Positions 1,598 through 50,990 of a DNA stretch of 64,000 nucleotides are shown here, piece after piece. Source of the stretch: a virus. A program made the translations under genes and the position numbers. The DNA lies in the IMG/VR virus record IMGVR_UViG_3300019927_000058, positions 1 through 64,000 of that record; one strand, given 5' to 3'. The notes below the pieces were generated by a model that was not told where the DNA came from, searched no databases, and saw only the letters and a list, made by a program, of their open reading frames with translations. Every line of letters begins with the position of its first letter. Position 1 is the stretch's first letter.

Positions 1598-2626
1598 TTA
1601 AAACATATCGTCTGTTGTTACGCTTTTCGTGTGCTTGTTGTAAGTGGTAGACCGCTTTGCGAAAAAGTCGTTGTGTTTGGTCATCATAATGTCTTCATCA
1701 AACCATCGGGTTTCTTCAAGTAAATCATTGTCGGTATCAAAAACAGTCTCCACACCAACATTATCAAGGCTTTGATTGAATCTATCCTTGAGGAATTCAT
1801 TAATATTTTTACGGGGAAGGAAATCTAATTCTCCTTCGCTAAAAATCCAATCAAGAATTTTCATTTCTGCATCATATGCTTTCTCACAAGCTTCTTGCAC
1901 ACGCTCATCAAAATCATCAGCGAAAAGTCCGGGGTTTTCCTCTTGAATTGTATTGATAAGGTCTACCCCAAAAAGACCGTGAATTTGTTCTTCTTTTGAG
2001 GTAGCTTCAACAGCATTTGAGATTCCTTTAAACTTCTTTTCGTATTTATCAAAGCTTGTCATAATAAGAAATTGACTAAATAGAGAAACGTGTTCAATGA
2101 AAATACTAAACAGAAGCAGACTCATAACATATTCTTCTTCATCATCGCTATTGGCTCCTTCCAAATATTTATCAAGATAATCAATTCTGTCTCTAATTGC
2201 AGGTACTTCGGTTATCTCTTTAAATTCATCTTCGATGCCCAAAATCTCAAGAAGATGACTATAAGCATCCATATGACGCACCTCGCTTTCTGCAAAGGAC
2301 ATCCCCACGCTCCCAAATTCAGATTTTGGCATTTGCTTGTAAAGATCCGCCCAAAAAGTTTTAACTTGCACTTCAATTTGTGCGATTGCAAGCATTGTTT
2401 TCTTGATGACACTTTTTTCTACTGGCGTGGTGTTAACTTCAAAATCTTGAACATCTCCTTGGAAATTAAATTCAGTATGAACCCAATAACTATTCCGAAT
2501 TGCATCCGTGTATTCTAAAAATTCTTTATATTCATAAGGTTTGATATTTTCCCTCTCTTCAAAAATATTTGTTTTATCTCCAGTTACATTCTCGCCGTTG
2601 GGAATGTGATTATCATTACGCGACAT
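1598..2626 (-). CDS. nrdB: Ribonucleotide reductase class I small (beta) subunit
   Basis: 342 aa with di-iron/radical-site motifs EVRHMDAYSHLLEILG, FIEHVSLFSQF and EEQIHGLFG. The stop codon lies 5 nt upstream of the nrdA ATG, so the two form an operon. Confidence 0.9.
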   Translation of the reverse strand: MSRNDNHIPNGENVTGDKTNIFEERENIKPYEYKEFLEYTDAIRNSYWVHTEFNFQGDVQDFEVNTTPVEKSVIKKTMLAIAQIEVQVKTFWADLYKQMPKSEFGSVGMSFAESEVRHMDAYSHLLEILGIEDEFKEITEVPAIRDRIDYLDKYLEGANSDDEEEYVMSLLLFSIFIEHVSLFSQFLIMTSFDKYEKKFKGISNAVEATSKEEQIHGLFGVDLINTIQEENPGLFADDFDERVQEACEKAYDAEMKILDWIFSEGELDFLPRKNINEFLKDRFNQSLDNVGVETVFDTDNDLLEETRWFDEDIMMTKHNDFFAKRSTTYNKHTKSVTTDDMF

Positions 2627-2686
2627 AGGATTTTACAATAACATATCTTGCCTTATAAGAGTTTTGTTTCAACTTCTTTATGATAA

Positions 2687-2730
2687 GCGACAACAAGGCA
2701 AAAAGAAAAAGAGTTGGAACCTTGTTGCGC
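2687..2730 (-). terminator. Inverted repeat with two T5 tracts in its loop (minus strand); possible terminator between the tail module and the RNR operon
   Basis: GCGACAACAAGG (2687-2698) pairs with CCTTGTTGCGC (2720-2730) with one bulge. The loop carries A5 runs at 2700-2704 and 2706-2710 on the plus strand, which are T5 on the coding strand. A TTATAAG box lies about 30 nt upstream of the nrdB ATG. Confidence 0.3.
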
Positions 2731-2762
2731 TACTTATTCGTTATATACTCAAGTTTATAAAA

Positions 2763-3158
2763 CTAACGTTTTATTTCTTCAATATCTTCATAATCTACAT
2801 CAACATTCTCTTCATCTACTAAAATAGCAGCTAAATCTTGAAACATCGCTTGCAATTCGTTATGTGCATGTTCATTTTCATTGGCAACAATATCAATTTT
2901 ATCTTCCAAAGAATCAAAGCGATTTTCCATTCTCTCAAATTGCCTATTGGTTTCTACTAGATGCCCCATATCAGTTTGATCCTCTTCAATTCCAAATATA
3001 CGCTTGAAAAGCTTCATTAACATATTATCGTTACTATCAACTTTTTCTTCAACTCTCCTAATCTTGTACCATAAAAAAGAGTACGCTCCAACATTAAACG
3101 TTAAAATAATCCCCAACAATACTTCTATCAAATCTGCTTCTATTGAATTAAAAATCAT
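2763..3158 (-). CDS. Membrane-anchored coiled-coil protein, function unknown
   Basis: 131 aa with one N-terminal hydrophobic helix (LIEVLLGIILTFNVGAYSFLWY) followed by an acidic heptad-like region. A TAATG overlap joins it to the upstream gene. It is the last gene of the tail block. Confidence 0.55.
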   Translation of the reverse strand: MIFNSIEADLIEVLLGIILTFNVGAYSFLWYKIRRVEEKVDSNDNMLMKLFKRIFGIEEDQTDMGHLVETNRQFERMENRFDSLEDKIDIVANENEHAHNELQAMFQDLAAILVDEENVDVDYEDIEEIKR

Positions 3159-4669
3159 TATGTTTGACTAAAGTGAATTTCTTGTCCATAAATTTCTACC
3201 CAAGCTTCCTTATCTACAAATACGCCTTCTAAAGTATTCTCCGGTTCCTCGTGAACGATAATACCTGCCTTTGGAGATTCAGCTGATCCGTCACCGTCGT
3301 CATCTCCACCACTGTCTCCGCCGCCTCCAGATATATTAGAAACAGAAATAGCAATTGTATCTTCTGTATCTTCGGTAAAAAGAGAAATTGTCTTTACACC
3401 AATCCAATCTGAAGGAATTCTATAAGTAAAAGTCTCTCTTGTTACAGAATCACTTCCAACCGAATCTAAAGTTATTTCTCTAAAATCGAGTATTTTAGGT
3501 TTTAGAAATCCTATGTCCTTCATCAAAACAGTCTGTGTTCCTTCAGTATTGCCAAGATTGTAAATATCAGCCTCTACTTCAACTGTTTCGCCTTTTGCAA
3601 CAGGTGCATTGGTTTGTTTAATCAAAACCTTAAAATAAACCCCCGTCGTTTTTACAGCTATCTTTTCAAAATTTTCATCACTATCATCGGTAGAAGAAAC
3701 TGTTAAATCATATAAGCCAACATTCACATCACTCCAAATAAATGTTAATTCTTGACTTTCTCCATCATTAAGAGATATTGTCTGACTGTCTTTAACAGAG
3801 TCTTCAGAAGATAATTCAATAGTTTGAGTATCAGGCTCATTTCCTATGTTTTCTATAGTTGCATAAACTTCAATATCAGTTGGTTCAGTATCAGGAACAA
3901 GGATTTTATCTATAGTAACTGCAAAAAAAGCAGAACCATCCGACGCATTAACAACAACATCAACAGTATCGCTATCAGTTTCGGAAAAATATTTAGCAGT
4001 ATATTTTCCCGGTTGTGCATCGCTCCAAGAAAGTATTCTTCTTTTTTCTTGAAAAGCTTCCAAACTCATATTGAAGAAATCACGGTTTTCACCGCCAACA
4101 TCCAATTGAATAATTTGCGAATCATCTACAGCATCTTGGTTAGTAATATCTGCTGTTACATCTAATGTTTCACCGGGGTTAATTGGCGAATTAGTAGAAA
4201 TAATATCAACATCAAATGTATTTGGAACCTCTAAAGAACCTTCACTGCAAACTCCAGAAGTTTCTGTACCTATTCTAAATGAAGGTGTTTCAGAAGAAAC
4301 CTCCGAGAATGATTCAATAAATGTACTAAAAGTAAACTGCCGCTCTTCGCCAGCATCAAAAGCGACATTTTCTCTTATATCATCCATATCTCCATCAAAA
4401 ATGTAGATAATATCTTTATATTCCCTACTATCATTTTCATTTGTTACAGAAACAACGACTTCAAATGCCCCCGGTAATCTCGGAGTGTTTGTACTATCTA
4501 TTGAAAAAGAAAACCCATCGCTAGAAGTTTGAGAAGAACTTGAAGTTTCGGTATCTTCTGTTCCACTTTCATCAACGCCATCAAAATCCAAAGATTTCTT
4601 TTCGCCTCTTTCATCTGTATAAGCAAGTTTCTCATCTTCGACCCAAAGGGAGCCTTCTCTTGCTGACAT
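3158..4669 (-). CDS. Tail-tip adhesin/fibre protein with tandem CARDB-like beta-sandwich repeats
   Basis: 503 aa with repeated ~100-aa units carrying CARDB-like signatures: VTADITNQDAVDDSQIIQLDVGGE, YATIENIGNEPDTQTIELSSED...GESQELTFIW and VEADIYNLGNTEGTQTVLM. A GGGGDSGGDDDGDG linker is present. It is translationally coupled (TAATG) to the upstream baseplate-like gene. Confidence 0.6.
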   Translation of the reverse strand: MSAREGSLWVEDEKLAYTDERGEKKSLDFDGVDESGTEDTETSSSSQTSSDGFSFSIDSTNTPRLPGAFEVVVSVTNENDSREYKDIIYIFDGDMDDIRENVAFDAGEERQFTFSTFIESFSEVSSETPSFRIGTETSGVCSEGSLEVPNTFDVDIISTNSPINPGETLDVTADITNQDAVDDSQIIQLDVGGENRDFFNMSLEAFQEKRRILSWSDAQPGKYTAKYFSETDSDTVDVVVNASDGSAFFAVTIDKILVPDTEPTDIEVYATIENIGNEPDTQTIELSSEDSVKDSQTISLNDGESQELTFIWSDVNVGLYDLTVSSTDDSDENFEKIAVKTTGVYFKVLIKQTNAPVAKGETVEVEADIYNLGNTEGTQTVLMKDIGFLKPKILDFREITLDSVGSDSVTRETFTYRIPSDWIGVKTISLFTEDTEDTIAISVSNISGGGGDSGGDDDGDGSAESPKAGIIVHEEPENTLEGVFVDKEAWVEIYGQEIHFSQT

Positions 4670-7110
4670 TAGTTACCACCTCTCTCTGAAAATTGATCAG
4701 TACCTACAGGCAAAGTATTGCCTTTAGACGTTCCTTCTTTTTGCACGCCATGAACTTCTCTTGTCGTTTCTATAAGTTGCGAAGCAATATCCTCTGTGAA
4801 ACCAAATGAAATACTTGTTCTTCTCTTACCGTATCGAACATTTTCAATAATCATATCTTTTCCATGTGAAAATTTAGAACCGTCAACGACTTCTCCAATC
4901 GGAGCAAGAGTAGGAAGAGAACTTATTGAACCAGAGTATTCAACATCAGAATGATCTTTTAAGAAAGACCTTGCCTTAGCATTGGCCGCTTCAACGCTTT
5001 CAACTTCTCTATCTACAATAAATTTGTCTTTCGTAACATAGTCTGGAGCATTATCGGCAACAATTCTGTTGCCATAAATTTGATTTTTACCCTTAACCAA
5101 ACACGAACGATATGTTTCGCTTATATCTCTACTAGAGGTGACTGTCTCTTTGTAAAGGGGAACATCATTTTTAATATCTCCCTTCTGAAATACCTTTGCT
5201 GTATTCCCATCAAATCGGAATAATGCAGTGCTATCACTTGCAAGAGAATTGATAGTAGAAAGTCTATTGTCAGTAAGACTCTCATCGCTAACAATATCTA
5301 AGTTATTAAATGAAGCATCAACAGATACAGATTTAATTCTGTGCTTTTCATCGCCTTCATTTGGTGTTCCAACGCCACTACTCATCGAAGATAATGAAAC
5401 ACGGAAGCGATGAGAAGCCCCCGGATAAGCAAAGCTTTCGGATACACTATTTGTATTATCGATGGTCTTAATGTATGTTTCACCGGGATTAATATTCAAA
5501 CTTTGTTCAACTCCCCAATTTCCTACAGGATTTGTTATATTGGAGAAATTAACCGTTGTAGTTGCACTAGCTATATTTCTATCAGCACTTTGGGGCGAGA
5601 ATTCCACGTACTGAGTTTCATCGTAAAGACCATTGTACGCATAATTTACTGGTCTACTTAACTCTAAATCATCATTAAGTGTATTATCAAAGGTGTAATT
5701 CAGATTTTCTTGATCATGGCAAATAACAAAACAATCTAACGCAACAGAAAATCCGGTATCAAATTTATTCCAAATTTTAAATTCATCTATTTCGCCAATA
5801 GTTGAAAAATTATTGTTTATTGGATACTGAAGCCATTGATATTTTCCATCGTCATCAAAGTCAATTGAATCATAATTTAAGTCTACTTCTTCACCATTAA
5901 TTATAAGTTTTCCAGCCCAAAAATTCCAAGATTCGGGGACAGAATCAGTTATATTATCAATGTTTCTAACACGGATATTTAAAGTCGGATTTTCAAAATC
6001 TCTTTCGTCTGGTAGTAAACTAAATCGGGGACTCAAATCGGGAGTCCTAGTACCCGGTTTTAATTTAAATTCATAAGAATTACTTGCTATATTAATAGCA
6101 TTTAGTTCGGCCTTGTAACAATCATCAATATCATCAGAATAAAGAGATTCGTCACCAGATTCAATATTTCCCCAATTGGAAACTCTCCGGGTACGGATTT
6201 CTTCATTTCCATCTTCATTAACTACAGTAATTCCATCACTTTTTCTGCTAATTTGATTTGCCAAGGCCGACTCATCTTTTGAGTAAAAATCTTTTTCTGA
6301 ACCCGAAGAATTAATATCTGGAGTTACTGTTTCCCGTTTCATTTGATGATCTGCAAACGCAACCCAATTTATGAGTCTTGATTCTCCTTCCAAATCAAAC
6401 TGCAAGGTATAATCTCCAGATTCTAACCTGTCCGACTGAATTGTATACCAACTTCCATACCGATTCCCATCAGCATTATCAATTGTTTTTGAAATTCGAC
6501 CAAAAGAAACATCTACAGTAGAACTTCCCGGCGTATAAACTTTATAATATATTGTCTCTGGTTTAGAAATGCCACTATACTCAACAGTTCCAGAACCTTC
6601 TAAAACATCCAATCCAAGATGTTTTACACCAGAAAGTGTTTCGCTGGAACTATTTCTTAACTCTGTATGTTCTGCCTCAAGATCATTGTAACCGTCAATA
6701 ACGTCCGAAATAGCATCAAAAACAGAGCTATTAGACTTTGTTTTGTCAATATCATCTCCTTTTAACTGCTTACCGGGAGGCTCTGCCTCAATGCTATAGT
6801 CTTCTCCATTCGTTCTGGAGGTTTCTATAACCATAATATCTCCTTCAAAAAGCAACTTAGTATCAACATACACACGGAGTGTCTCTCCTAAATATTTATT
6901 TGATTCCAAAACCGAATTCGGAGGAACATCAATACTAATATTTTTTGCTTTATTTGCAGAAGGAGAATAACTAATATTGCTTATCTTTGTAGAATAAACA
7001 TCAGTTCCATCATCTACTTCAGCATAATACTCATTTGCTTCTAAGACAACATCTCCATTGTCTATTGCAAGATTATGCCATTCGCCTTCAATAGTATCAA
7101 TATCTACCAT
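4669..7110 (-). CDS. Large distal-tail/baseplate protein (Dit/Tal-position)
   Basis: 813 aa. It starts 2 nt after the tape-measure stop, the position usually held by distal tail or tail-associated proteins. No catalytic motif was recognised. Confidence 0.5.
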   Translation of the reverse strand: MVDIDTIEGEWHNLAIDNGDVVLEANEYYAEVDDGTDVYSTKISNISYSPSANKAKNISIDVPPNSVLESNKYLGETLRVYVDTKLLFEGDIMVIETSRTNGEDYSIEAEPPGKQLKGDDIDKTKSNSSVFDAISDVIDGYNDLEAEHTELRNSSSETLSGVKHLGLDVLEGSGTVEYSGISKPETIYYKVYTPGSSTVDVSFGRISKTIDNADGNRYGSWYTIQSDRLESGDYTLQFDLEGESRLINWVAFADHQMKRETVTPDINSSGSEKDFYSKDESALANQISRKSDGITVVNEDGNEEIRTRRVSNWGNIESGDESLYSDDIDDCYKAELNAINIASNSYEFKLKPGTRTPDLSPRFSLLPDERDFENPTLNIRVRNIDNITDSVPESWNFWAGKLIINGEEVDLNYDSIDFDDDGKYQWLQYPINNNFSTIGEIDEFKIWNKFDTGFSVALDCFVICHDQENLNYTFDNTLNDDLELSRPVNYAYNGLYDETQYVEFSPQSADRNIASATTTVNFSNITNPVGNWGVEQSLNINPGETYIKTIDNTNSVSESFAYPGASHRFRVSLSSMSSGVGTPNEGDEKHRIKSVSVDASFNNLDIVSDESLTDNRLSTINSLASDSTALFRFDGNTAKVFQKGDIKNDVPLYKETVTSSRDISETYRSCLVKGKNQIYGNRIVADNAPDYVTKDKFIVDREVESVEAANAKARSFLKDHSDVEYSGSISSLPTLAPIGEVVDGSKFSHGKDMIIENVRYGKRRTSISFGFTEDIASQLIETTREVHGVQKEGTSKGNTLPVGTDQFSERGGN

Positions 7111-7112
7111 TC

Positions 7113-10100
7113 TTAGTTAGTCCTTTGTTTTCCTGCTCCATCAATTTCTTGAACAATATCTCTCATACTTTCATCAAATACCTCACGAACTTTCATTGGC
7201 AATTCTTCATCCGAAATGCCTTGGAAAGCACCTTCTTCAAAGTATATAGCTTTTTCAGAAACTTCAATCTTTTTATCTTTGTCTTCAGAACTACTTTGCG
7301 ATAACTTCTGATTGGCGTTAGTGTTCATTCCTTTGCCAATATTCTGTTCTTGAATCTTACTTTTCATTGAAGCAAGATCGAAGCCAACATCTCCCGAAAT
7401 GTTTTCAAGTTCAGTATCAGTGAGAGAACGAACAGCATCCTCAAACTTAGATTCACTCCCTTCGATTCCTTTAGCAACATCAGTAGCAAGGGCTTTACCA
7501 CGAGCTTCGGGGTGATTTGGCTTACTCAGTGGTCCTTCATCCGCTGGTGATTTGGGAAGAAATTTACCAAGTTTACCTGCTGCATTTCTAATTGCATCTT
7601 TGATTATTTTCCCTGCCTTCCCAATTCCTTCGGCAATTTTTTCAATAAGAGTCCTTCCCCAATCTAATGCATCAGAAGGTGAAATATCAAGCAAACCAGA
7701 AAGACCATCAAAAATATTTGAAACGCCATTAGAAATAGCCTCAGCAAAATTAGAACCCAATTCAGCCAGCTTAGAAGCAACATCAGTAGTGCTATCAATT
7801 GTATCTTCAATTAGATACTGAAGAGCATCTATCAATTTAGGTCCGAGTTTCTTGGCAAGGTTAAATCCAGCTATAATCGCATCTCCCATAGCAGAACCGA
7901 GTTTCGCTAGTGAATCTCCAAGGTTTTCTAAGTCTTCAAGACTCGTTGGTATTGCATCAACTATTACAGAACCCAAATTAACAAGTGCCTTTGCTGCCCT
8001 CTGAGGCAAGTTAGCAAAAGCAGAAACAATATCATCAAGAAGATCAGAAATATTACTATTCACCTTTTTGGCTAAAGTAATAAACGCATTAATTATACCA
8101 TTTATCAAGTCAAGAACTAAACCAACAATAGTTGCTATAATACCTCCAAATAAACCAACTAAAGCTTGCCCAAGCCCGATGACGATATTAATTATGCCTT
8201 GGACCATAAGCTGTATGGCTTTTTTTCCAAGACGAGCAGATTTTTGAAAGTCGCCACTCAAAAATGCAACTAAAGACCGCAATCCCAGAATAACAGCATT
8301 TGCAGCCTGAACAATTCCGAGAATAGCATCACCAAGTCCTTCAATAATTATCCGAAGCGCACCCATTGCAACTTCCAAAGCAACTATTCCATCTCCCGCT
8401 CCAAGAAATGTCGTAACGAGAGCAGTAATTTCTTCTCCTAATTTTACAATATTTGTAACTAAACTTACAATTGCAGGAGCAACTTCATCCGCCATCTGAT
8501 TTCCAAAGTGGGTAATGCCATCAACAAGAGGCGCTAATGCGCTTCTCATTCCACCCACATCAGCAATCCAAAGAGCAGCTAAAGTTGCAAATAAATTGAT
8601 AATAACTGCAATTGGTCCACCGAGAGCAGAAAGACCGAGACGAGCAGCGAAGCTCGCTCTTTGCATTCCCAATAAGGCAGTATTTGCCGAACGAACGAAT
8701 CTCGTCAATCCAACAACTTTCCTCCCCGCAGCTACAACTCTACTCCCAAATGCAATGATTTTAGCAACTATTGGTCCAACAAAAGAAACAACTGCTCCAA
8801 GAGCCTTAGACAGACCTATCAAAACAGCGGCAAATGTTCCACCTTTAACAATAGCATCAGAATTACCCTGAATAAATGCGCTAATACTCGGAATAACTTG
8901 ATTGAACAAAGTATTCGATAAAGAAACAACTGCCGGGATAATCTGATTGGTTAAAGTGTTAACTATAAACGGAAGAATGGCGGTTTCAAATGAATCCCAA
9001 AGAGCAGTAACAGCAGGGATAACATCACTTCTAAACGTTGCCACAAGCTGAGGAAATACATCATTAACTGCTATAGAAGCAAATCGCTGTATTGCAGGAA
9101 TAATAACATTTACAAATGTAGATGCAACAACTCCTGCGAAATCTCCAATAGCCTGAGCATTGTTCTTCAAAATATTTCCGATAGCTCTGAAAATATTGCC
9201 AATGACGCTTCCAAATTGGCGAATTAAATTACCAGAGCCACCAACACTCTGATCGACTTCATTAAATACAGCCGCAAAAACAGCCACAACACCTTCGCCA
9301 GCAACAATCATTCCCGGTAAAACTTCTTCAACAAATACATTACGCAAATGATTCGCAACGTCAACAAGACTAACAAGGAACGAACGCATCTCCTGAAACA
9401 TAGTCTGGGCTTCCTGTCCACCACTAGCAGCATTAGATAACGCACCTCCTAAAATCCCGATAGCAGAACCGGCAAGCAAAGCAAACGGAATAAACATACT
9501 TCCCATCGCCTGTGCGATCAGTGCGATTTGACCACCCAAGAGAAGAAGAGGACCAAGCACCAAACCAAGAGTGACAGCAAGAATAGTAAATTCACTAATA
9601 TTTTCTCTGACACTCTCTTCCATATTAGCAAATCGTTCCGTAAGATTATTTACATTTTCAGCAAATGTAGAAATAGTATCAACCAAATCCTCAGTAAATA
9701 CACGGCCAAGGGAAGCCAAGGATTCTTGAAGTTCTGAAATAGAATTACGTAGCTGTTGCTGTGGACCTTGCGCCTGTTTAAACCACGAATTCAAATCGCC
9801 AGAAGTTACTTCTTCAGTTACATTCTGGAATTCTTCAAACGAATCAAAGTTCTCCTTTGCGCTTTCATCTAATTTAGACCAAGATTCTGCTGCATCAAAC
9901 GTCCCCTCCTCCATCTGTTCAAAGATATTCGTAAGAGCTTCACCATCATCTCCGACAAGAGCAAGTGCGCCCTGAAGCGCACGGGTACGGGGGAATAGTT
10001 CATTGAATGCAATATTCTGCTCTTGAGTCCGTTCACGAAGTTGAACTAACGTATCAACAAAGTCCTGATTTTGAAGAACAAGATTACCAATACCGCCTTC

Positions 10101-11210
10101 CAAGTCTCCTTGAACATCAACAGTATTCTTAAATTCATCACGGATACTCTGCAACTGACTCTTCTTTTCTTCACGTTCCATTCGAGCATTTTCTTCTGCA
10201 ACTCTCGCCTTATTAACTTGGAACTGGTAGTCATTAATAATAGACTCAAGTTCCTTTACAGAATCAGCATTTGCAACGGTTTCGGTAGTTAACTGAGGAA
10301 GTTGATTAAGTCTCTCTTCTTCAATGGCTTCTATTTTGAGCCGAGCTTCCTGAATAGCTAACGAAGCTTCTTCTTGTGTACTTCTTGCCGCTTCCTGCTT
10401 TTCGGTTAATTCTTGAACAGCACTAGAAGCATTACGATACTCATCAGCTAACTGTCGAACCTGTTGCTCTGACTCACCCATCGATTCGGCAAATAGATCC
10501 TGCTCTAAAGCAATGCCACGCAGTTGCTCTTGCATAGTCTCCGAAGGACGCATCATCGCACGGAAAATATTACGAAGACCAGTAGCGGCTACTCTGGCCC
10601 CGAATCCAGTCCGTGTAAGAACACCCATCGCAGCACCGATTTCATCAATCTGAATGCTTAAGTTTGAACCAAGAGCAGCAACACGCCCAAGAACCGGAGC
10701 AAGATCTTCCATCCGGGTTTTACCAAACTGAACAGTCTGGAAAAGCGACTCAGACACATCCTGTGCCTGATCAGCCTCTAACCCATACGTGTTCATCACA
10801 GTCGAAAGCACATCGACAGACGTACCCAACTCTACCCGACCAACAACAGCAAGCTTTGAAGCAGTAGTCAGAAACTCTCTCTGAGCCTCTGTACTCTTTC
10901 CAATACCAGCCGAAACAGACTGATACAGACCCTCAATAACCTCAAGCCTATCAGCCTGAAGGCCCATTTCCGTGTTCAAATCGGAAGTTAATTCACCATA
11001 TCTCTCCTGAGCATTAGACGCTCCCTGAACCAACGTATCAACTTCACGAAAAGCAGCATTGACACGTTCTGCCCTTTGAGATAACGTGAATAAAGCAGCA
11101 CCAGTAAGTGCTGAAGCACCAGTCATCGCAACACCAAGATTTCGGACAGTTGAACTTAATCCTCTAACTACTTCAGTAAGGCCACTGGTAATATCGCCCG
11201 CGCTGGCCAT
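7113..11210 (-). CDS. Tail tape measure protein
   Basis: 1365 aa. The N-terminal ~230 aa resemble the TP901-family tape-measure core as I remember it (LYQSVSAGIG, VMNTYG, LFQTVQFGKTRMEDLAPVLGRVA). A long coiled coil follows, then Gly/Ala/Ile/Val-rich hydrophobic repeats. Confidence 0.85.
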   Translation of the reverse strand: MASAGDITSGLTEVVRGLSSTVRNLGVAMTGASALTGAALFTLSQRAERVNAAFREVDTLVQGASNAQERYGELTSDLNTEMGLQADRLEVIEGLYQSVSAGIGKSTEAQREFLTTASKLAVVGRVELGTSVDVLSTVMNTYGLEADQAQDVSESLFQTVQFGKTRMEDLAPVLGRVAALGSNLSIQIDEIGAAMGVLTRTGFGARVAATGLRNIFRAMMRPSETMQEQLRGIALEQDLFAESMGESEQQVRQLADEYRNASSAVQELTEKQEAARSTQEEASLAIQEARLKIEAIEEERLNQLPQLTTETVANADSVKELESIINDYQFQVNKARVAEENARMEREEKKSQLQSIRDEFKNTVDVQGDLEGGIGNLVLQNQDFVDTLVQLRERTQEQNIAFNELFPRTRALQGALALVGDDGEALTNIFEQMEEGTFDAAESWSKLDESAKENFDSFEEFQNVTEEVTSGDLNSWFKQAQGPQQQLRNSISELQESLASLGRVFTEDLVDTISTFAENVNNLTERFANMEESVRENISEFTILAVTLGLVLGPLLLLGGQIALIAQAMGSMFIPFALLAGSAIGILGGALSNAASGGQEAQTMFQEMRSFLVSLVDVANHLRNVFVEEVLPGMIVAGEGVVAVFAAVFNEVDQSVGGSGNLIRQFGSVIGNIFRAIGNILKNNAQAIGDFAGVVASTFVNVIIPAIQRFASIAVNDVFPQLVATFRSDVIPAVTALWDSFETAILPFIVNTLTNQIIPAVVSLSNTLFNQVIPSISAFIQGNSDAIVKGGTFAAVLIGLSKALGAVVSFVGPIVAKIIAFGSRVVAAGRKVVGLTRFVRSANTALLGMQRASFAARLGLSALGGPIAVIINLFATLAALWIADVGGMRSALAPLVDGITHFGNQMADEVAPAIVSLVTNIVKLGEEITALVTTFLGAGDGIVALEVAMGALRIIIEGLGDAILGIVQAANAVILGLRSLVAFLSGDFQKSARLGKKAIQLMVQGIINIVIGLGQALVGLFGGIIATIVGLVLDLINGIINAFITLAKKVNSNISDLLDDIVSAFANLPQRAAKALVNLGSVIVDAIPTSLEDLENLGDSLAKLGSAMGDAIIAGFNLAKKLGPKLIDALQYLIEDTIDSTTDVASKLAELGSNFAEAISNGVSNIFDGLSGLLDISPSDALDWGRTLIEKIAEGIGKAGKIIKDAIRNAAGKLGKFLPKSPADEGPLSKPNHPEARGKALATDVAKGIEGSESKFEDAVRSLTDTELENISGDVGFDLASMKSKIQEQNIGKGMNTNANQKLSQSSSEDKDKKIEVSEKAIYFEEGAFQGISDEELPMKVREVFDESMRDIVQEIDGAGKQRTN

Positions 11211-11391
11211 TGCTTTGTTATAATCATCAAAACATCGGCCTTTAACGCGATTCCGAGATCACCAACCGGACTAAGAGACAAGGCCATTCACCCCCGTAAA
11301 AAGATTTTCTATGGTTCTTTTACTTGCATGGAATCTGAGCGTCTTTTGATCGACCCCACACAAGAAATCAACAACAGTTCTATCAGGTCTG

Positions 11392-12519
11392 TTATCGTAA
11401 TATTTCTTTAAGTCTATTAATAATTTCATTTCTTTCCTCCCAAGACACATATTCATCGCAAGGAATTTTGCTTCCTAAAACAAGATATGTATAATCCGGG
11501 TATTCATCCATGAAAATTTCCGCTTTATCTACACTACCGTCCGAAACATATCCCTTAACTTCAATCACCACCTCAGATTCAACAATGAAATCGGGCATAT
11601 ACTTCCTATCTCCAATATCAAATCTTTTCGGTTCATAGCAGTAATTCAAATCAGAATTATGAAGTAATAAATCTATTTCCTTTTCCCAACTAGAACGGAC
11701 TGTTCTTTCAGTTTCTTCTACAAACACAGGTTTAGAAATAAGACTTCCATTTATGATGTTATCACTTTCGTATAAATAATCATTATCTCGTTTATTAATA
11801 ACATTTTCCATCATCCATTCTCTATCGCGCTGAGAATGTTGAGTTTCTCCTTTTTCATAATTTTCTTTCATCGTCTGAGATATTTTCTCTCGTCTTTCTT
11901 TGCTTTTATTGGGGTTATCCTCTCCCTCCATATCAGACCCAAAGCAATCGTCATTACAATACTTCGGATACTTTGGATCACCTTTGCTTTTTGGAGTCCA
12001 GTTTTCTTCACCACAATAATCGCAATTATAGTATGTCCCTGCTATTGACTCATCATGCTTATCGTGATGATGCTTACTGACAGATTGTTTTGTGGCAAAA
12101 CTCTTATCACAGGAAGGACATGGATATTTGTTTCCAATTTCATATTCCAATACCCATTTGGAAACAGTTTTCATCCCAACATCCAGTTCATCAGCGATTT
12201 CTGTCACTGTTTTTCCTTGTTCTTCTACTTGCTCTCGCAGGTAGTCTTCATCAAAGTGTTTGAAAGTTCCAGTTTTATTATAAATCTCGCACCACTTAGA
12301 ACAGAATGTGTTTCTTTTCCCATTCCCGAAATCCAACCTCCCACATTCTTCGCATCTATATAGATATGCAAGACTTCCTTCATGATTGTAACCATAATGC
12401 ATTGAAACACCCCGAGATGAATCAAAATCATCATCTCCGCATTCAGGACATTCAATGAAGTTCAATTCATCATCGACACATTCTTCAAGTCGTGCTTGAC
12501 TGAGTGTTTTCTTCCCCAT
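11392..12519 (-). CDS. Free-standing homing-endonuclease-like protein: C2H2 and CxxC..FCSxxC zinc fingers, an HTH, and a C-terminal PD-(D/E)XK nuclease
   Basis: 375 aa. Motifs: CPECG..HYGYNH, CEECG...FCSKWCEIY, an HTH (GKTVTEIADELDVGMKTVSKWV), CPSCDKSF..HHHDKH, and a C-terminal YMPDFIVESEVVIEVKG. The C-terminal ~90 aa align with ORF 49463-50416. Confidence 0.6.
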   Translation of the reverse strand: MGKKTLSQARLEECVDDELNFIECPECGDDDFDSSRGVSMHYGYNHEGSLAYLYRCEECGRLDFGNGKRNTFCSKWCEIYNKTGTFKHFDEDYLREQVEEQGKTVTEIADELDVGMKTVSKWVLEYEIGNKYPCPSCDKSFATKQSVSKHHHDKHDESIAGTYYNCDYCGEENWTPKSKGDPKYPKYCNDDCFGSDMEGEDNPNKSKERREKISQTMKENYEKGETQHSQRDREWMMENVINKRDNDYLYESDNIINGSLISKPVFVEETERTVRSSWEKEIDLLLHNSDLNYCYEPKRFDIGDRKYMPDFIVESEVVIEVKGYVSDGSVDKAEIFMDEYPDYTYLVLGSKIPCDEYVSWEERNEIINRLKEILR

Positions 12520-12653
12520 ACTCTATCTAATAACTACTCACTTATATTTCTTATGCAGTAGTCATAGACTTTAATGATTTTCATTTAATAGTGAGAAGTT
12601 CAGTCAAAATAATTGAATCAAAAACCGCTTCGCATTATCTGAATTTGGTTTAG

Positions 12654-47142: not shown

Positions 47143-47397
47143 ATGAGTGATGCACCAAAGGACAATTGGCGTCCAGCAGAGAAGAAACCTATCCAAGTTG
47201 AATTCCGTGGACCTTATTACACACCCGATGAAGTTGAAACTATCGAAGGTGATTTTGAAGTAGATAGAGAATATCTTAATGAACACGGCGGTTATGTCAT
47301 AATCAAGGGAATCGAAGGTGAAAAGTATCCGTGTGCTTTGGATATATTCAGAGAGTCATATGGAATGCCGGAGGAATCAAAATGCTTGGAAGAGTGA
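47143..47397 (+). CDS. Small conserved phage-type beta protein (PGDYG-like?)
   Basis: 84 aa. The pattern KKPIQVEFRGPY..VETIEGDFEV..GGYVIIKGIEGEKYPCALDIFRESY matches my memory of the PGDYG family. Confidence 0.35.
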   Translation: MSDAPKDNWRPAEKKPIQVEFRGPYYTPDEVETIEGDFEVDREYLNEHGGYVIIKGIEGEKYPCALDIFRESYGMPEESKCLEE

Positions 47398-49466
47398 CAT
47401 GGTGTGACTACTGTATCGATGATTATTTCGGTGTACTTGTTCGGTTATCAGCAAGGTTAGAAGATGGCAGTCGTTGGAATGGTTATGTTGCAGGGACAGA
47501 ACCCTACATCTTTGCACCTGAAGATGAACCAGTTCCAGATAAATACTACATCGAGAGAACAGAGTCCGGTTATGAATCTCTCTTCGATCATAAGCTTCAG
47601 AAGATAGTCACACGCACGCCTAAACAGGCTGGTGGACTCACCGACGAGTTTTCTTGGTCCGGTGAAGGTGATGTTCCATATTATCGAAGAGTAGCTATTC
47701 ACGATGGTCTGAGTGGCTATGTAGATATTCCTGAAGAGTATAATGAAAAACGCAAGGATCTACCAGTAGTTCATATTGATGATATTGATGTAGAACCAGA
47801 TTATAACGATACTATTGAGCCACGAATCTCCATTGCTGACATTGAGGTTCATGTTCCTGAAAATGGCACATTTGAGGAAATGCAGAAGAAAGCAAATGAA
47901 CCAATCAATGTTATCTGTTCATATGATACATATGAAGAGAAGTACACTGTCTTCTATTATGATAAGTACGGTGGATTGGATTCGGGGAGTATTCGTGATA
48001 AAATAGAGGAACAGCTTGCGGGTGCAGGAAAACAATGGCAGAATATGAGGAAACATATTGAGAAGGATATTGAATTAGTGATTTCTGATTCCGAGGCTGC
48101 TATGTTGAATGAGTATGAGCAGTATATTAGTGAAAGAGACTTTGATCTTGTTTCAGGTTGGAATTATGTAGATTTCGACCGAGAATATATTCGTAAACGG
48201 ATGAAAGTTCTTTATGAAGATGATGAAAATATCCATCCGTCATGGCTATCTCCTTTCGATGTGATTTCAGATTCTCGGAATGAAAATAGAAGAATTCCGG
48301 GTAGAGCGCCATTTGATATGCTGGAAGGGTTTTGCGATAAATTGACTTTCAGCAATTGGCGTTCTCGATCATTAGAATATGTAGCCAATGAAGAGCTTGG
48401 CATCGGGAAGATAGAGGATGTTCAAATTAATGATGATTGGGAGAATAATGCTTCCCGATTGATTGCGTATAATATCGTTGACGTTATTCTCACTGTGGCG
48501 CTTGATGATGAAAACGATATTCATAACTTTTTCTATGAAATGGCTGACGTTGCCTCTATTCCGATTTATGATGTTTTCTATGAGAAGAGAATCGTTGATG
48601 GAATTGTTCTCAGTTGGCGGAATGAAGATGAAATTCTTCCAACAGCAGATGAAAGTGAACTGGTAGATAATGCAGGCGGTTATGTAGCTAATGCAATTCA
48701 GGGGAGGAAACAAGATGTGGGTGTTTCTGATCTTAAAAGTCTCTATCCTTCTGTAATAATTACGTGGAATCTTTCCACTGAAACAGTTGCGGAAACTCCA
48801 GAAGACTTCGATGAGTATGTAAAAATTCCTAAAGTTCCTGAGCCAAAGAATGTGGATGGAAAAATTCATGAACATTTTATGGATTGGGACTGGTTGTATG
48901 CTTCCCTTGATCAAGAAGGTCTTATCCCAAGAGTCAGTAAGAAACTGTTCAAAAAACGGAATTATGAGAAAGAGCAGATGTATGCTGCTCCAGATGGCTC
49001 TCAAGAACAGAAAAAGTGGGATAGGAAGCAAGGAGCTACAAAGGTTATCATGAATTCGATCTACGGCAACCTCTCTTCCAAATATTTTCGTCTTTCTAAT
49101 GAGTACCTTGGCGATGCTGTTACTTCAACTGCAAGATATACACTTTGGAAAGGAGAGCAAACTATCGACCGTCTTGGATATGAACACATCTACTCAGACA
49201 CAGACAGTCACTTTATTCAATTAACAAGAGACACTTTGGAAGGGCAGGTTGAAGAGTTGAAAGAAATCTCTGCCAAAATGGATTCGGATGCTTCGGAAAT
49301 CGCTCAAGAAATTGGAATTGAGGGTAAGCATCCCTATCTTGTTGATGAAGATTTGCATGGTGATGAATATACTTGCTTATTATGGGAACCAGAAGCCATT
49401 TTCAATTCTTTTCTTCAATTGGGTAAAAAGAAAAGATACGCTGGAAACTTGGGGTGGGAATTATGA
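47382..49466 (+). CDS. polB: Family B DNA polymerase, N-terminal fragment (exonuclease, palm and fingers through the KKRY motif)
   Basis: ATG at 47382 with GGAGGA upstream. Motifs: Exo I ISIADIEV, Exo II SGWNYVDFDREY, Exo III YNIVDVILT, motif A VSDLKSLYPSVI, motif B KVIMNSIYGNLS, motif C IYSDTDSHF, then LGKKKRYAGNLGWEL followed by a stop. Confidence 0.9.
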   Translation: MLGRVTWCDYCIDDYFGVLVRLSARLEDGSRWNGYVAGTEPYIFAPEDEPVPDKYYIERTESGYESLFDHKLQKIVTRTPKQAGGLTDEFSWSGEGDVPYYRRVAIHDGLSGYVDIPEEYNEKRKDLPVVHIDDIDVEPDYNDTIEPRISIADIEVHVPENGTFEEMQKKANEPINVICSYDTYEEKYTVFYYDKYGGLDSGSIRDKIEEQLAGAGKQWQNMRKHIEKDIELVISDSEAAMLNEYEQYISERDFDLVSGWNYVDFDREYIRKRMKVLYEDDENIHPSWLSPFDVISDSRNENRRIPGRAPFDMLEGFCDKLTFSNWRSRSLEYVANEELGIGKIEDVQINDDWENNASRLIAYNIVDVILTVALDDENDIHNFFYEMADVASIPIYDVFYEKRIVDGIVLSWRNEDEILPTADESELVDNAGGYVANAIQGRKQDVGVSDLKSLYPSVIITWNLSTETVAETPEDFDEYVKIPKVPEPKNVDGKIHEHFMDWDWLYASLDQEGLIPRVSKKLFKKRNYEKEQMYAAPDGSQEQKKWDRKQGATKVIMNSIYGNLSSKYFRLSNEYLGDAVTSTARYTLWKGEQTIDRLGYEHIYSDTDSHFIQLTRDTLEGQVEELKEISAKMDSDASEIAQEIGIEGKHPYLVDEDLHGDEYTCLLWEPEAIFNSFLQLGKKKRYAGNLGWEL

Positions 49467-50416
49467 AATACTATTGTGAAAATTGTGATTATTCAACAGA
49501 TACAGAAAGAGGTTTAAATATTCATGTTGGCAGAAAACATGGCAAACCAGTAGAAAAATGCGAAGAATGCAAAGAACAATTTGAAACATCCCCATCAAAC
49601 AATAGAAAGTTTTGCTCCGATGAATGCTACCGTACTTATCAAGAAAGAACAAAAGAAAATAAAGAAGCAAAATGCGAAGTTTGCGGTAAATATTTTGAAT
49701 ATCATCCATCTGCATATGTTGGACGTTTTTGCTCAAAAAAGTGTCAATATAAAGGCAATTCTGCTCCATCTGGACAAGAACACTGGAATTATAAAAAAGA
49801 GATAACAAAACAGTGTAAGAATTGCGATGGGGAGTTTAATGTCAAGCCTCATAAGTCTCATCAAGAATTCTGTAGCTCAGAGTGTGTCGGTAGGTATGGT
49901 GAGTGGGAGAAACCGGGGAGAAGTAAGGTTGACAGAATCAAGAAAGACTGCCATGTATGCGGAGAAGAAGTTATTCGTTTACCTTCAAATATTACTTCTG
50001 ATGAGGAACGTGTGTTTTGTTCTGAACGGTGTCGTGGTAAGTGGGTTTCAAAAAGTGATATATTCAACGCATCATCTGTTTATGTAAAGGAAACAAATAG
50101 AACTGTAGCATCTGGTTGGGAGGCGAAAGTAGACCGAATTCTACATGAAAGTATTTTTGAATACGAATATGAATCAAAAACATTCACCATTGGCGATGAA
50201 AGAAATTATACACCGGATTTCATAGTTGAAGATGATATTGTCATAGAAGTCAAAGGACAAGCATCTGATTATTCATATGAACGTTCTTCTCTATTTTTAC
50301 AAGAGTATGGTGAAGATTGGTTATATATCGTTGTTGGTACTGAAATGGATAGTCACATTCATATATCTTGGAGTAATCATTCAAAGTTACCGGAGGTGTT
50401 GAAGAATGCCATATAA
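49463..50416 (+). mobile_element. Homing-endonuclease-like gene inserted in polB: one C2H2 finger, four CxxC..FCSxxC (FCS/TRASH-like) zinc fingers and a PD-(D/E)XK nuclease
   Basis: ATG at 49463 overlaps the polB-N stop (ATGA). The 3' end overlaps the polB-C start by 11 nt. Motifs: YYCENCDYSTDTERGLNIHVGRKH; CEECKE..FCSDECYRTY; CEVCGK..FCSKKCQYKG; CKNCDG..FCSSECVGRYG; CHVCGE..FCSERCRGKW; C-terminal YTPDFIVEDDIVIEVKG. It is a paralogue of 11392-12519. Confidence 0.7.
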
Positions 50417-50990
50417 AAAAGAAGGGTTTGTGGGAAAGTTTTACGATGAACCTAAAATAAAAATTAAGGGTTTTGAAAACCAACGCTCGGATAGTCCACC
50501 TGTCACTGCCGAACTTCAAGAAAAGATTATTGAGATGATTCTTACGAATGAAGATTTTGTAACTGTTTCTAAATATATAGAGTCTGTCATCGAAGAAATT
50601 GATATTGAAAGTGATAATGTCGAAAGGTTTGCACTACCGGGGTCGTTAAATAGAGATTTGGAAGATTATACAAATACACAAATAACAAGAGGAGCAAGAT
50701 ATTCTAATGAACATCTCGATAAAGAGTTTGGCGAAGGCGATGATCCATTCGTTTACATGGTCGATGATACTCCAGCAGGATTACCACAGACTGATGTAGT
50801 GGCTCTTGAATGGGATGATGATATTCCTGAAGGGTTTGAGTTGAATAAAGAAGCAATCATTGAGAGAGGCATTAAGAAACCAATTGATTCCATTATCAAT
50901 GAAATGGATTGGGAATTTAATGAAATTCGCTCTGGGAAGAGACAAAAGAAAAAAGACCTAAGTACAGGCGGCTCCAATCCTTTTGCATGA
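50406..50990 (+). CDS. polB: Family B DNA polymerase, C-terminal fragment (thumb)
   Basis: 194 aa. GKFYDEPKIKIKGFENQRSDSPP aligns with the segment that follows KKRYA in T4/RB69-type PolB (recalled as ..EPKLKIMGLETQKSSTP). Confidence 0.75.
   Translation: MPYKKEGFVGKFYDEPKIKIKGFENQRSDSPPVTAELQEKIIEMILTNEDFVTVSKYIESVIEEIDIESDNVERFALPGSLNRDLEDYTNTQITRGARYSNEHLDKEFGEGDDPFVYMVDDTPAGLPQTDVVALEWDDDIPEGFELNKEAIIERGIKKPIDSIINEMDWEFNEIRSGKRQKKKDLSTGGSNPFA

Follow-up and report, generated by a model that had tools for sequence, protein, structure and literature searches.

Six or seven families of homing endonucleases are commonly distinguished. Those with a restriction-endonuclease-like fold that have been characterised are, to our knowledge, I-Ssp6803I as the single PD-(D/E)XK member and a Vsr-like lineage. 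I-Ssp6803I is intron-encoded, assembles into a small tetramer and is not known to have separate modules for DNA binding. The Vsr-like EDxHD homing endonucleases are found in phages, where they are free-standing or reside in introns or inteins (PMC3239194, PMC2677866). A 2012 survey of PD-(D/E)XK nucleases listed Phage_endo_I, the Pfam family of T7 endonuclease I, solely as a junction resolvase (PMC3424549). In this work, two related nuclease genes of a halovirus, an archaeal virus from a salt lake, were analyzed. The virus is represented by a single contig of 106,233 bp with about 39% G+C (IMG/VR record IMGVR_UViG_3300019927_000058), and both genes lie in its positions 1-64,000, referred to below as the window. 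One is positioned directly upstream of the tape-measure gene (tail copy, P0001) and the other splits the gene encoding DNA polymerase B, polB (polB copy, P0002). Comparison with related viruses indicates that both are very probably free-standing homing endonuclease genes of one family, representing two lineages, and that both moved after the compared viruses had diverged.

The tail copy is an open reading frame (ORF) at positions 11392-12519 on the minus strand and encodes 375 amino acids (aa). The polB copy is located on the plus strand at positions 49454/49463-50416 and encodes 320 aa from a GTG codon or 317 aa from an ATG codon. GTG 49454 is the first possible start, and residues of P0002 are numbered from it; ATG 49463 is most likely the start that is used, since the first residue of the homologue P0003 corresponds to this methionine. 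The two ORFs had been described as paralogues with a colinear C-terminal region of ~90 aa in a first-pass annotation that was made from the sequence alone. BLASTP analysis bore this out, with 30% identity in a full-length alignment (E=1e-29) and 44% identity over the final ~120 aa. The ORF coordinates given there hold, with the ATG start agreeing with that of P0003, and the C-terminal strings quoted there agree with the translations. The motif counts were also reproduced, i.e., four Cys4 repeats in the polB copy, two such repeats plus a helix-turn-helix (HTH) in the tail copy and a C2H2 finger in both. The two proteins have isoelectric points of 4.7 and 6.0. Most relatives are likewise acidic, and many family members have an acidic composition as is typical for proteins of halophiles. 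In the PHROGs database, proteins of the tail-copy type are already filed as phrog_29037 "endonuclease" (E=3.9e-23), and the finger array of P0002 matches "HNH endonuclease" phrogs.

Comparison of polB alleles revealed both filled and empty sites. The nuclease gene occupies the identical polB position in the window and in four metagenomic contigs (L003, L005, L006, and L007). In six IMG/VR contigs (L010-L015) this site is empty, and polB is unbroken, reading ...KKRYAGNIxWKEG(T)xY.... Among them is the closest relative of the window, L011, whose unbroken polB is 83.5% identical to that of the window at the amino acid level. In a polB tree calculated without the last 100 residues ahead of the junction, the window was sister to the gene-less L011 (support 94/93), the gene-bearing L003 was the most distant allele, and presence of the nuclease gene was scattered across the tree. 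The window nuclease is 62% identical to the L003 copy and ~48-50% identical to the L005 copy. The history of the nuclease therefore runs opposite to the polB tree, because the nuclease is closer to the L003 copy though the polB of L003 is the most distant one. A mosaic was also detected within polB itself. At informative sites far from the junction, the window sided with L011 over L003 by 211:21; the ratio of agreement with L011 and L003 was 17:25 within -50 to +100 aa of the junction and 1:8 in the first 50 residues downstream. This pattern is a signature of co-conversion, the footprint that homing would leave in the polB sequence. A blastn search of the polB region against a phage collection gave no match.

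The two ends of the nuclease gene are interlocked with polB. At positions 49463-49466, the TGA stop of the N-terminal polB ORF overlaps the ATG of the nuclease gene (ATGA), and at positions 50406-50416 the ATG of the C-terminal polB ORF lies 11 nt ahead of the nuclease stop. This arrangement suggests translational coupling that would keep the downstream half of polB expressed. Both polB ORFs share one reading frame and are contiguous in L011-L014. An unrecognised self-splicing element, either an intron or a split intein, might in this case restore a single polymerase chain, and the relatives L010 and L015 indeed have a true intein elsewhere in polB. Such an element is extremely improbable at the junction itself. 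Since the nuclease ORF takes up the entire gap between the two polB ORFs and overlaps with each of them, no space is left for a ribozyme; an Rfam search likewise revealed no intron in the window, and a group I intron was rejected. A split intein was rejected as well, since relative to unbroken polB the two ends are longer by only ~3 and 9 residues, so that intein halves are absent. The first-pass description of this copy as lying "inside polB" is therefore correct in that the gene splits polB, but the gene stands free between two coupled ORFs and belongs to no intron or intein. In L010 (~1730-2970) and L015 (~2580-3820), an in-frame polB intein with a LAGLIDADG-type motif is located at the YSD/TDS motif. 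Its boundaries read ...YSD-S...HN-TDSH..., and the window polB is uninterrupted there. Given this intein and the nuclease gene of the window, polB in this virus group has been invaded by mobile elements of two kinds, each at its own site.

The tail copy also revealed filled and empty sites. The contigs L004 (carrier) and L008 (empty) have flanks that are 98.9% and 97.4% identical. The interval between these flanks spans 1379 nt in L004 and includes a nuclease gene whose product is 57% identical to P0001; in L008 it consists of 252 unrelated nt. A 375-aa orthologue is encoded ahead of the tape-measure gene in L017. Between L017 and the window, DNA identity is 74% across 1385 nt, and this long similarity is confined to window positions 12579-11206. 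The genes flanking this cassette in L017 are diverged or unrelated; two short patches in the tape-measure gene were detected, and upstream similarity was not found. A more diverged member (36%) is likewise located before the tape-measure gene in L009, and two further members adjoin tail or tape-measure-like genes (L018 and L019/L020). The carriers and the empty genome alike retain a leader of ~110 nt ahead of the tape-measure start. The N-terminus of the tape-measure protein, used as a single query, revealed no relatives in viral contigs; the tape-measure relatives were found with a two-sequence alignment against metagenome contigs. L004 differs from all other contigs by an extra insert of ~66 nt within the tape-measure leader (L004:1760-1839). 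In addition, a small ORF of 61 aa (11271-11456, minus strand) overlaps the end of the nuclease gene and has a counterpart of 56 aa in L017. Together with the conserved segment 11211-11391, it could represent a small gene, a leader or a promoter. Overall, the homologues of the two genes are not fixed, syntenic and non-mobile, since filled and empty sites occur for both copies, in addition to the polB mosaic and the scattered presence of the gene in the tree.

An exhaustive HMMER search was performed with a two-sequence profile of the nuclease domain (E<=1e-3). The family comprised 1,893 clusters at 50% identity, 212 of them at E<=1e-10. A profile of 72 domain sequences matched T7 endonuclease I (PDB 1m0d) with E=1e-11 and 47.9 bits, and E20, D55, E65, and K67 of this enzyme align to the family-invariant residues E223, D255, E265, and K267. 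PF05367 was in turn matched at E<1e-3 by 53 of 140 family members. In the 72-sequence domain alignment and in 140 full-length members, the glutamate, the aspartate of Pro-Asp and the glutamate of Glu-x-Lys are invariant and the lysine is at least 90% conserved, in agreement with the (P)D...(D/E)xK signature that had been noted in both ORFs. The alignment columns that are conserved comprise E, Y, PD, and ExKG, and none of them is a histidine. Based on these profile searches, the domain is of the T7 endonuclease I-type PD-(D/E)XK class.

An AlphaFold2 model of the nuclease domain of the polB copy had a mean predicted local distance difference test (pLDDT) score of 97.1 and showed a compact monomer that is not domain swapped. 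The top structural matches were the Bax1 nuclease domain (Z 9.5), AF1548, the catalytic domain of I-Bth0305I (Z 9.0; root mean square deviation of 2.8 A over 89 residues), TnsA, and Vsr. Profile matches in the PDB were to T7 endonuclease I and, weakly, Bax1, and not to Vsr or 3r3p. T7 endonuclease I superposes poorly on the model, probably due to the domain-swapped form of its crystals (PMC3424549). Membership in the EDxHD (Vsr-like) group was rejected since no histidine is conserved and the PDB profile matches are not to Vsr. The I-Ssp6803I family was rejected because neither protein matched PF11645 at E<=1. The expectation of a Vsr/restriction-endonuclease-like fold was thus confirmed for the restriction fold but not for the Vsr-like affiliation, and neither a non-nuclease fold nor a loss of catalytic residues was found, as the E/D/E/K tetrad is kept in 140 homologues.

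Homology of the domain to T7 endonuclease I might indicate that the two proteins are viral resolvases of Holliday junctions or branched DNA, acting in genome maturation, with fingers that merely tether them to DNA or to partners and with incidental gene positions. Several mycobacteriophage homologues are indeed annotated as "Holliday junction resolvase". We consider this explanation very unlikely. A resolvase role does not account for two paralogues with differing finger arrays, for a copy that interrupts an essential gene at a site left intact in the closest relative, or for a gene that is dispensable between near-identical genomes. It also conflicts with the co-conversion mosaic and the incongruent tree of polB. 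Furthermore, NUMOD3, which is characteristic of homing endonucleases, was found in 55 of 140 members (HTH families were found in ~19 of the 140).

It is also conceivable, though unlikely, that the genes remain from earlier invasions, no longer home and are kept for another role, e.g., as DNA-binding regulators of neighbouring genes or as nucleases that exclude competing viruses. All orthologues found occupy the same two positions, with no new sites for either lineage, and this would fit such a role, as would the apparently tight coupling of the ORFs to polB translation and the conserved tape-measure leader just downstream of the tail cassette. The catalytic tetrad, however, is intact and under purifying selection, and the mosaic tract and the cassette-limited similarity point to transfers since divergence. 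Exclusion by cleavage followed by conversion would moreover be homing in mechanistic terms.

The proposal that both genes are mobile homing endonuclease genes, already made in the first-pass annotation, is thus supported by the restriction fold, the filled and empty sites and the co-conversion mosaic. Several points weigh against it. T7 endonuclease I resolves junctions selectively by structure and is not sequence specific, and FCS/YacG-type fingers are better known for contacts with protein or RNA. In single-sequence Pfam searches, the matches to Phage_endo_I (PF05367) reached 23.8 and 15.5 bits, compared to a cut-off of 29.1. The contrast in the polB mosaic (Fisher's p 2e-12) was obtained with bins picked after inspecting the data. 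Filled and empty sites could in principle result from deletion rather than gain. The low omega of the nuclease genes (about 0.12-0.2, with pN far below pS), itself in favour of the proposal, is a rough value because dS is near saturation. Finally, no biochemical data for any family member were found in the literature.

The residues preceding the nuclease domain consist of several small modules. In the tail copy, the order is C2H2 finger, FCS-like finger, HTH, C2H2 finger, FCS-like finger, NUMOD3-like/DUF7487 stretch, and nuclease. The C2H2 finger equivalent to finger 1 of the tail copy is kept in close homologues of the polB-copy lineage. Matches to Pfam C2H2 families had E values of 9e-4 to 0.06 and were all under the cut-offs. 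The four Cys4 units of the polB copy follow the pattern CxxC-x14-19-FCSxxC. Alignment of 61 Cys4 finger units revealed four invariant cysteines and a frequent FCS motif. Pfam YacG matched the P0002 array with 25.1 bits (cut-off, 25.5), and a profile of the finger units gave weak matches to L24e (8e-4), YacG (0.08), and the FCS finger of PHC1 (0.57). C2H2 arrays topped the PDB search with the finger profile; these hits were not taken as homology, as they summed matches to the CxxCG knuckle alone. A structural model of the finger array was of moderate confidence (pLDDT 66). Its Cys4 units scored 72-85, each forming a beta-hairpin followed by a helix, and its C2H2 finger scored below 50. Foldseek analysis with this model gave no significant match; local matches to YacG and to the FCS finger of L3MBTL2 had a probability of ~0.7 on a low-confidence model. 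"FCS/YacG-like" is therefore used as a fair label based on weak matches, short of proven membership.

A third relative with the same kind of array is encoded outside the window, at genome positions 102218-102862 on the plus strand (L022:519-1160). This protein of 214 aa combines a C2H2 finger and two FCS-like fingers with an HNH domain (PF01844, E=3.5e-10) and is 34% identical to P0002 (E=6e-14). Its gene is positioned just upstream of thyX (PF02511) and overlaps the thyX start. The finger array was also found in HNH-annotated proteins of other haloviruses. Fusion of the same array to HNH and to T7 endonuclease I-type domains indicates that the fingers are a portable module common to different nuclease classes. 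We infer that the fingers read the target DNA; we know of no DNA-reading code for Cys4 fingers of the FCS/YacG type. Just upstream of the HNH gene, an ORF of 158 aa (genome positions 101745-102221, plus strand; L022:46-519) shows two HTH-like repeats by eye that resemble the HTH of the tail copy. This ORF had no Pfam match at E<=0.01.

Across the family, almost every one of the 150 best hits carries the nuclease domain at its C-terminal end, behind 0-500 variable residues. Pattern searches in 150 cluster representatives detected C2H2 fingers in 73, FCS-like fingers in 33, and both in 25. The architecture, which had been called unusual, is therefore not rare within the family. Target recognition had been assigned to a variable array of zinc fingers; such an array is present and variable, but it is one of several interchangeable sets, which include NUMOD3 and HTH. 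The family, which had been called virus-resident and proposed for a search of haloviral metagenomes, does occur in haloviruses but is not confined to them. Among published haloviruses, HVTV-1, HVTV-2, and HCTV-5 carry a member combining C2H2 and nuclease, and the HVTV-1 copy adjoins the thymidylate synthase gene. Distant members with finger arrays are encoded directly after the capsid gene in Cluster C mycobacteriophages, and many mycobacteriophages with ~98% identical flanks lack the gene (matched span of 1799 nt versus 2704 nt). A contig-scale genome scan revealed only a weak match to Planctomycetia. Public labels for the family vary between "endonuclease", "HNH endonuclease", "Holliday junction resolvase", and "hypothetical". 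Gene 37 of HVTV-1 (4998-5723), for example, is named "replication factor C small subunit" in KC117377.1 and "endonuclease" in RefSeq. Mycobacteriophage members (e.g., Lukilu 2869-3798) are labelled "HNH endonuclease", "Holliday junction resolvase", or "hypothetical protein".

Taken together, the comparisons suggest the following model of homing. During mixed infection, the protein would bind a long conserved site in the gene-less allele. For the polB copy, the candidate target comprises the codons around ...KKRYAGN(I/L)xWKEG... / ...KKRYAGNIKWKEG... of the unbroken L011-type allele; for the tail copy, it may be the leader or the 5' end of the tape-measure gene. The DNA would be cut nearby by a Mg2+-dependent PD-(D/E)XK mechanism, and recombinational repair from the carrier genome would copy the gene and some of its flank into the cut genome. 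Insertion would disrupt the site, so that the carrier would be protected. The split polB would be expressed as two ORFs via the overlapping stop and start signals, with no need for an intron or intein. Cleavage at a specific site, the target sites themselves and the kind of cut, a nick or a double-strand break, are inferred parts of this model. The features of both genes and their genomic context are given in Table 1.

Table 1. Features of the two nuclease genes and of the neighbouring genes in the window
Feature	Positions	Strand	Basis or remarks
Tail-copy nuclease gene	11392..12519	-	Free-standing, directly upstream of the tape-measure gene; paralogue E=1e-29, phrog_29037
Mobile cassette (putative)	11206..12579	-	Gene with ~60 nt upstream and ~185 nt downstream, including ORF 11271-11456; delimited by comparison with L017
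Tail copy, C2H2-type finger 1, aa 24-46	12382..12450	-	C-x2-C...H-x4-H pattern in the translation
Tail copy, FCS-like finger 1, C56/C59/C73/C77	12289..12354	-	Regular expression and alignment of 61 units
Tail copy, helix-turn-helix module, aa ~90-130	12130..12252	-	Pfam HTH_23 E=4.4e-4 and other HTH families, all under cut-off
Tail copy, C2H2-type finger 2, aa 132-155	12055..12126	-	Weak Pfam zf-C2H2_4 and zf-C2H2; aligns with the C2H2 finger of the polB copy
Tail copy, FCS-like finger 2, C166/C169/C188/C192, YCNDDC variant	11944..12024	-	Regular expression and alignment of 61 units
Tail copy, NUMOD3-like/DUF7487-like linker, aa 199-257	11749..11925	-	Pfam DUF7487 E=1.7e-4, under cut-off
Tail copy, T7 endonuclease I-type PD-(D/E)XK domain	11395..11736	-	Predicted catalytic residues E279, D310, E320, K322; alignments and profile
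Tape-measure gene (context)	7113..11210	-	5' end and ~110-nt leader kept in carrier and empty genomes
polB-copy nuclease gene	49463..50416	+	317 aa; orthologues at the identical polB position in L003, L005, L006, L007
polB copy, C2H2 finger, C8/C11/H24/H29	49475..49540	+	Pfam zf-H2C2_5 E=9.3e-4, under cut-off; ligands invariant in six homologues
polB copy, four CxxC...FCSxxC fingers, C36-C58, C74-C97, C121-C144, C166-C193	49559..50032	+	Alignment; Pfam YacG near cut-off
polB copy, T7 endonuclease I-type PD-(D/E)XK domain	50078..50413	+	Predicted catalytic residues E223, D255, E265, K267
polB N-terminal ORF (context)	47331..49466	+	Pfam DNA_pol_B_exo1; DNA_pol_B positions 22-256
polB C-terminal ORF (context)	50406..50990	+	Pfam DNA_pol_B positions 285-380

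If these genes home as proposed, they would represent a third restriction-fold homing lineage, related to T7 endonuclease I and with genetic footprints of homing in archaeal viruses. A full-text literature search of incomplete coverage did not find a paper on a homing endonuclease of the T7 endonuclease I type or on this family as mobile. It is possible, though doubtful, that the family is a distinct unnamed lineage in which a T7 endonuclease I-type head operates behind interchangeable modules and the Cys4 FCS-type fingers read DNA unit by unit. If this holds true, the proteins would be natural zinc finger nucleases with a new modular DNA recognition unit, and FCS-type fingers would be added to the possible DNA-reading modules. 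The unbroken polB allele and the empty tape-measure leader provide candidate target sites that can be tested. The polB arrangement indicates that an essential polymerase tolerates a split at a defined position, and the fusion of one finger array to two nuclease classes in one genome illustrates how selfish genes may be assembled from parts.

T7 endonuclease I (gp3; PDB 1fzr, 1m0d, and 2pfj) is homologous to the window proteins in its catalytic domain, including the aligned tetrad. This stand-alone enzyme forms a domain-swapped dimer and resolves junctions on the basis of structure, whereas the window proteins add 200-260 aa of N-terminal modules and behave genetically as mobile genes. I-Ssp6803I (PF11645; PMC3424549) likewise uses a restriction-endonuclease-like fold for homing, but it belongs to another sequence family, and the window genes are free-standing and modular. 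The layout of the window proteins is the same as that of I-Bth0305I, Hef, and the EDxHD homing endonucleases, with NUMOD or HTH modules at the N-terminus and a restriction-fold nuclease at the C-terminus (PMC3239194, PMC2677866); the EDxHD set uses a catalytic histidine, whereas the window proteins use E...PD...ExK. The genes for SegA-G and MobA-E of T4-like phages also lack introns; they reside within conserved genes or in the gaps between them, and they spread through cleavage followed by co-conversion (PMC2988022). In Aeromonas phages, the DNA polymerase gene, gene 43, is split into two cistrons and resembles the polB of the window. The Seg and Mob enzymes differ in that they are GIY-YIG or HNH nucleases with C-terminal DNA-binding regions, whereas the nuclease of the window proteins is of the T7 endonuclease I type, is C-terminal and comes from an archaeal virus. 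Engineered zinc finger nucleases, which join C2H2 arrays to FokI, also connect zinc fingers to a PD-(D/E)XK cleavage domain; the window proteins, in contrast, are natural, contain only one or two C2H2 fingers and carry mostly fingers of the Cys4 FCS/YacG type.

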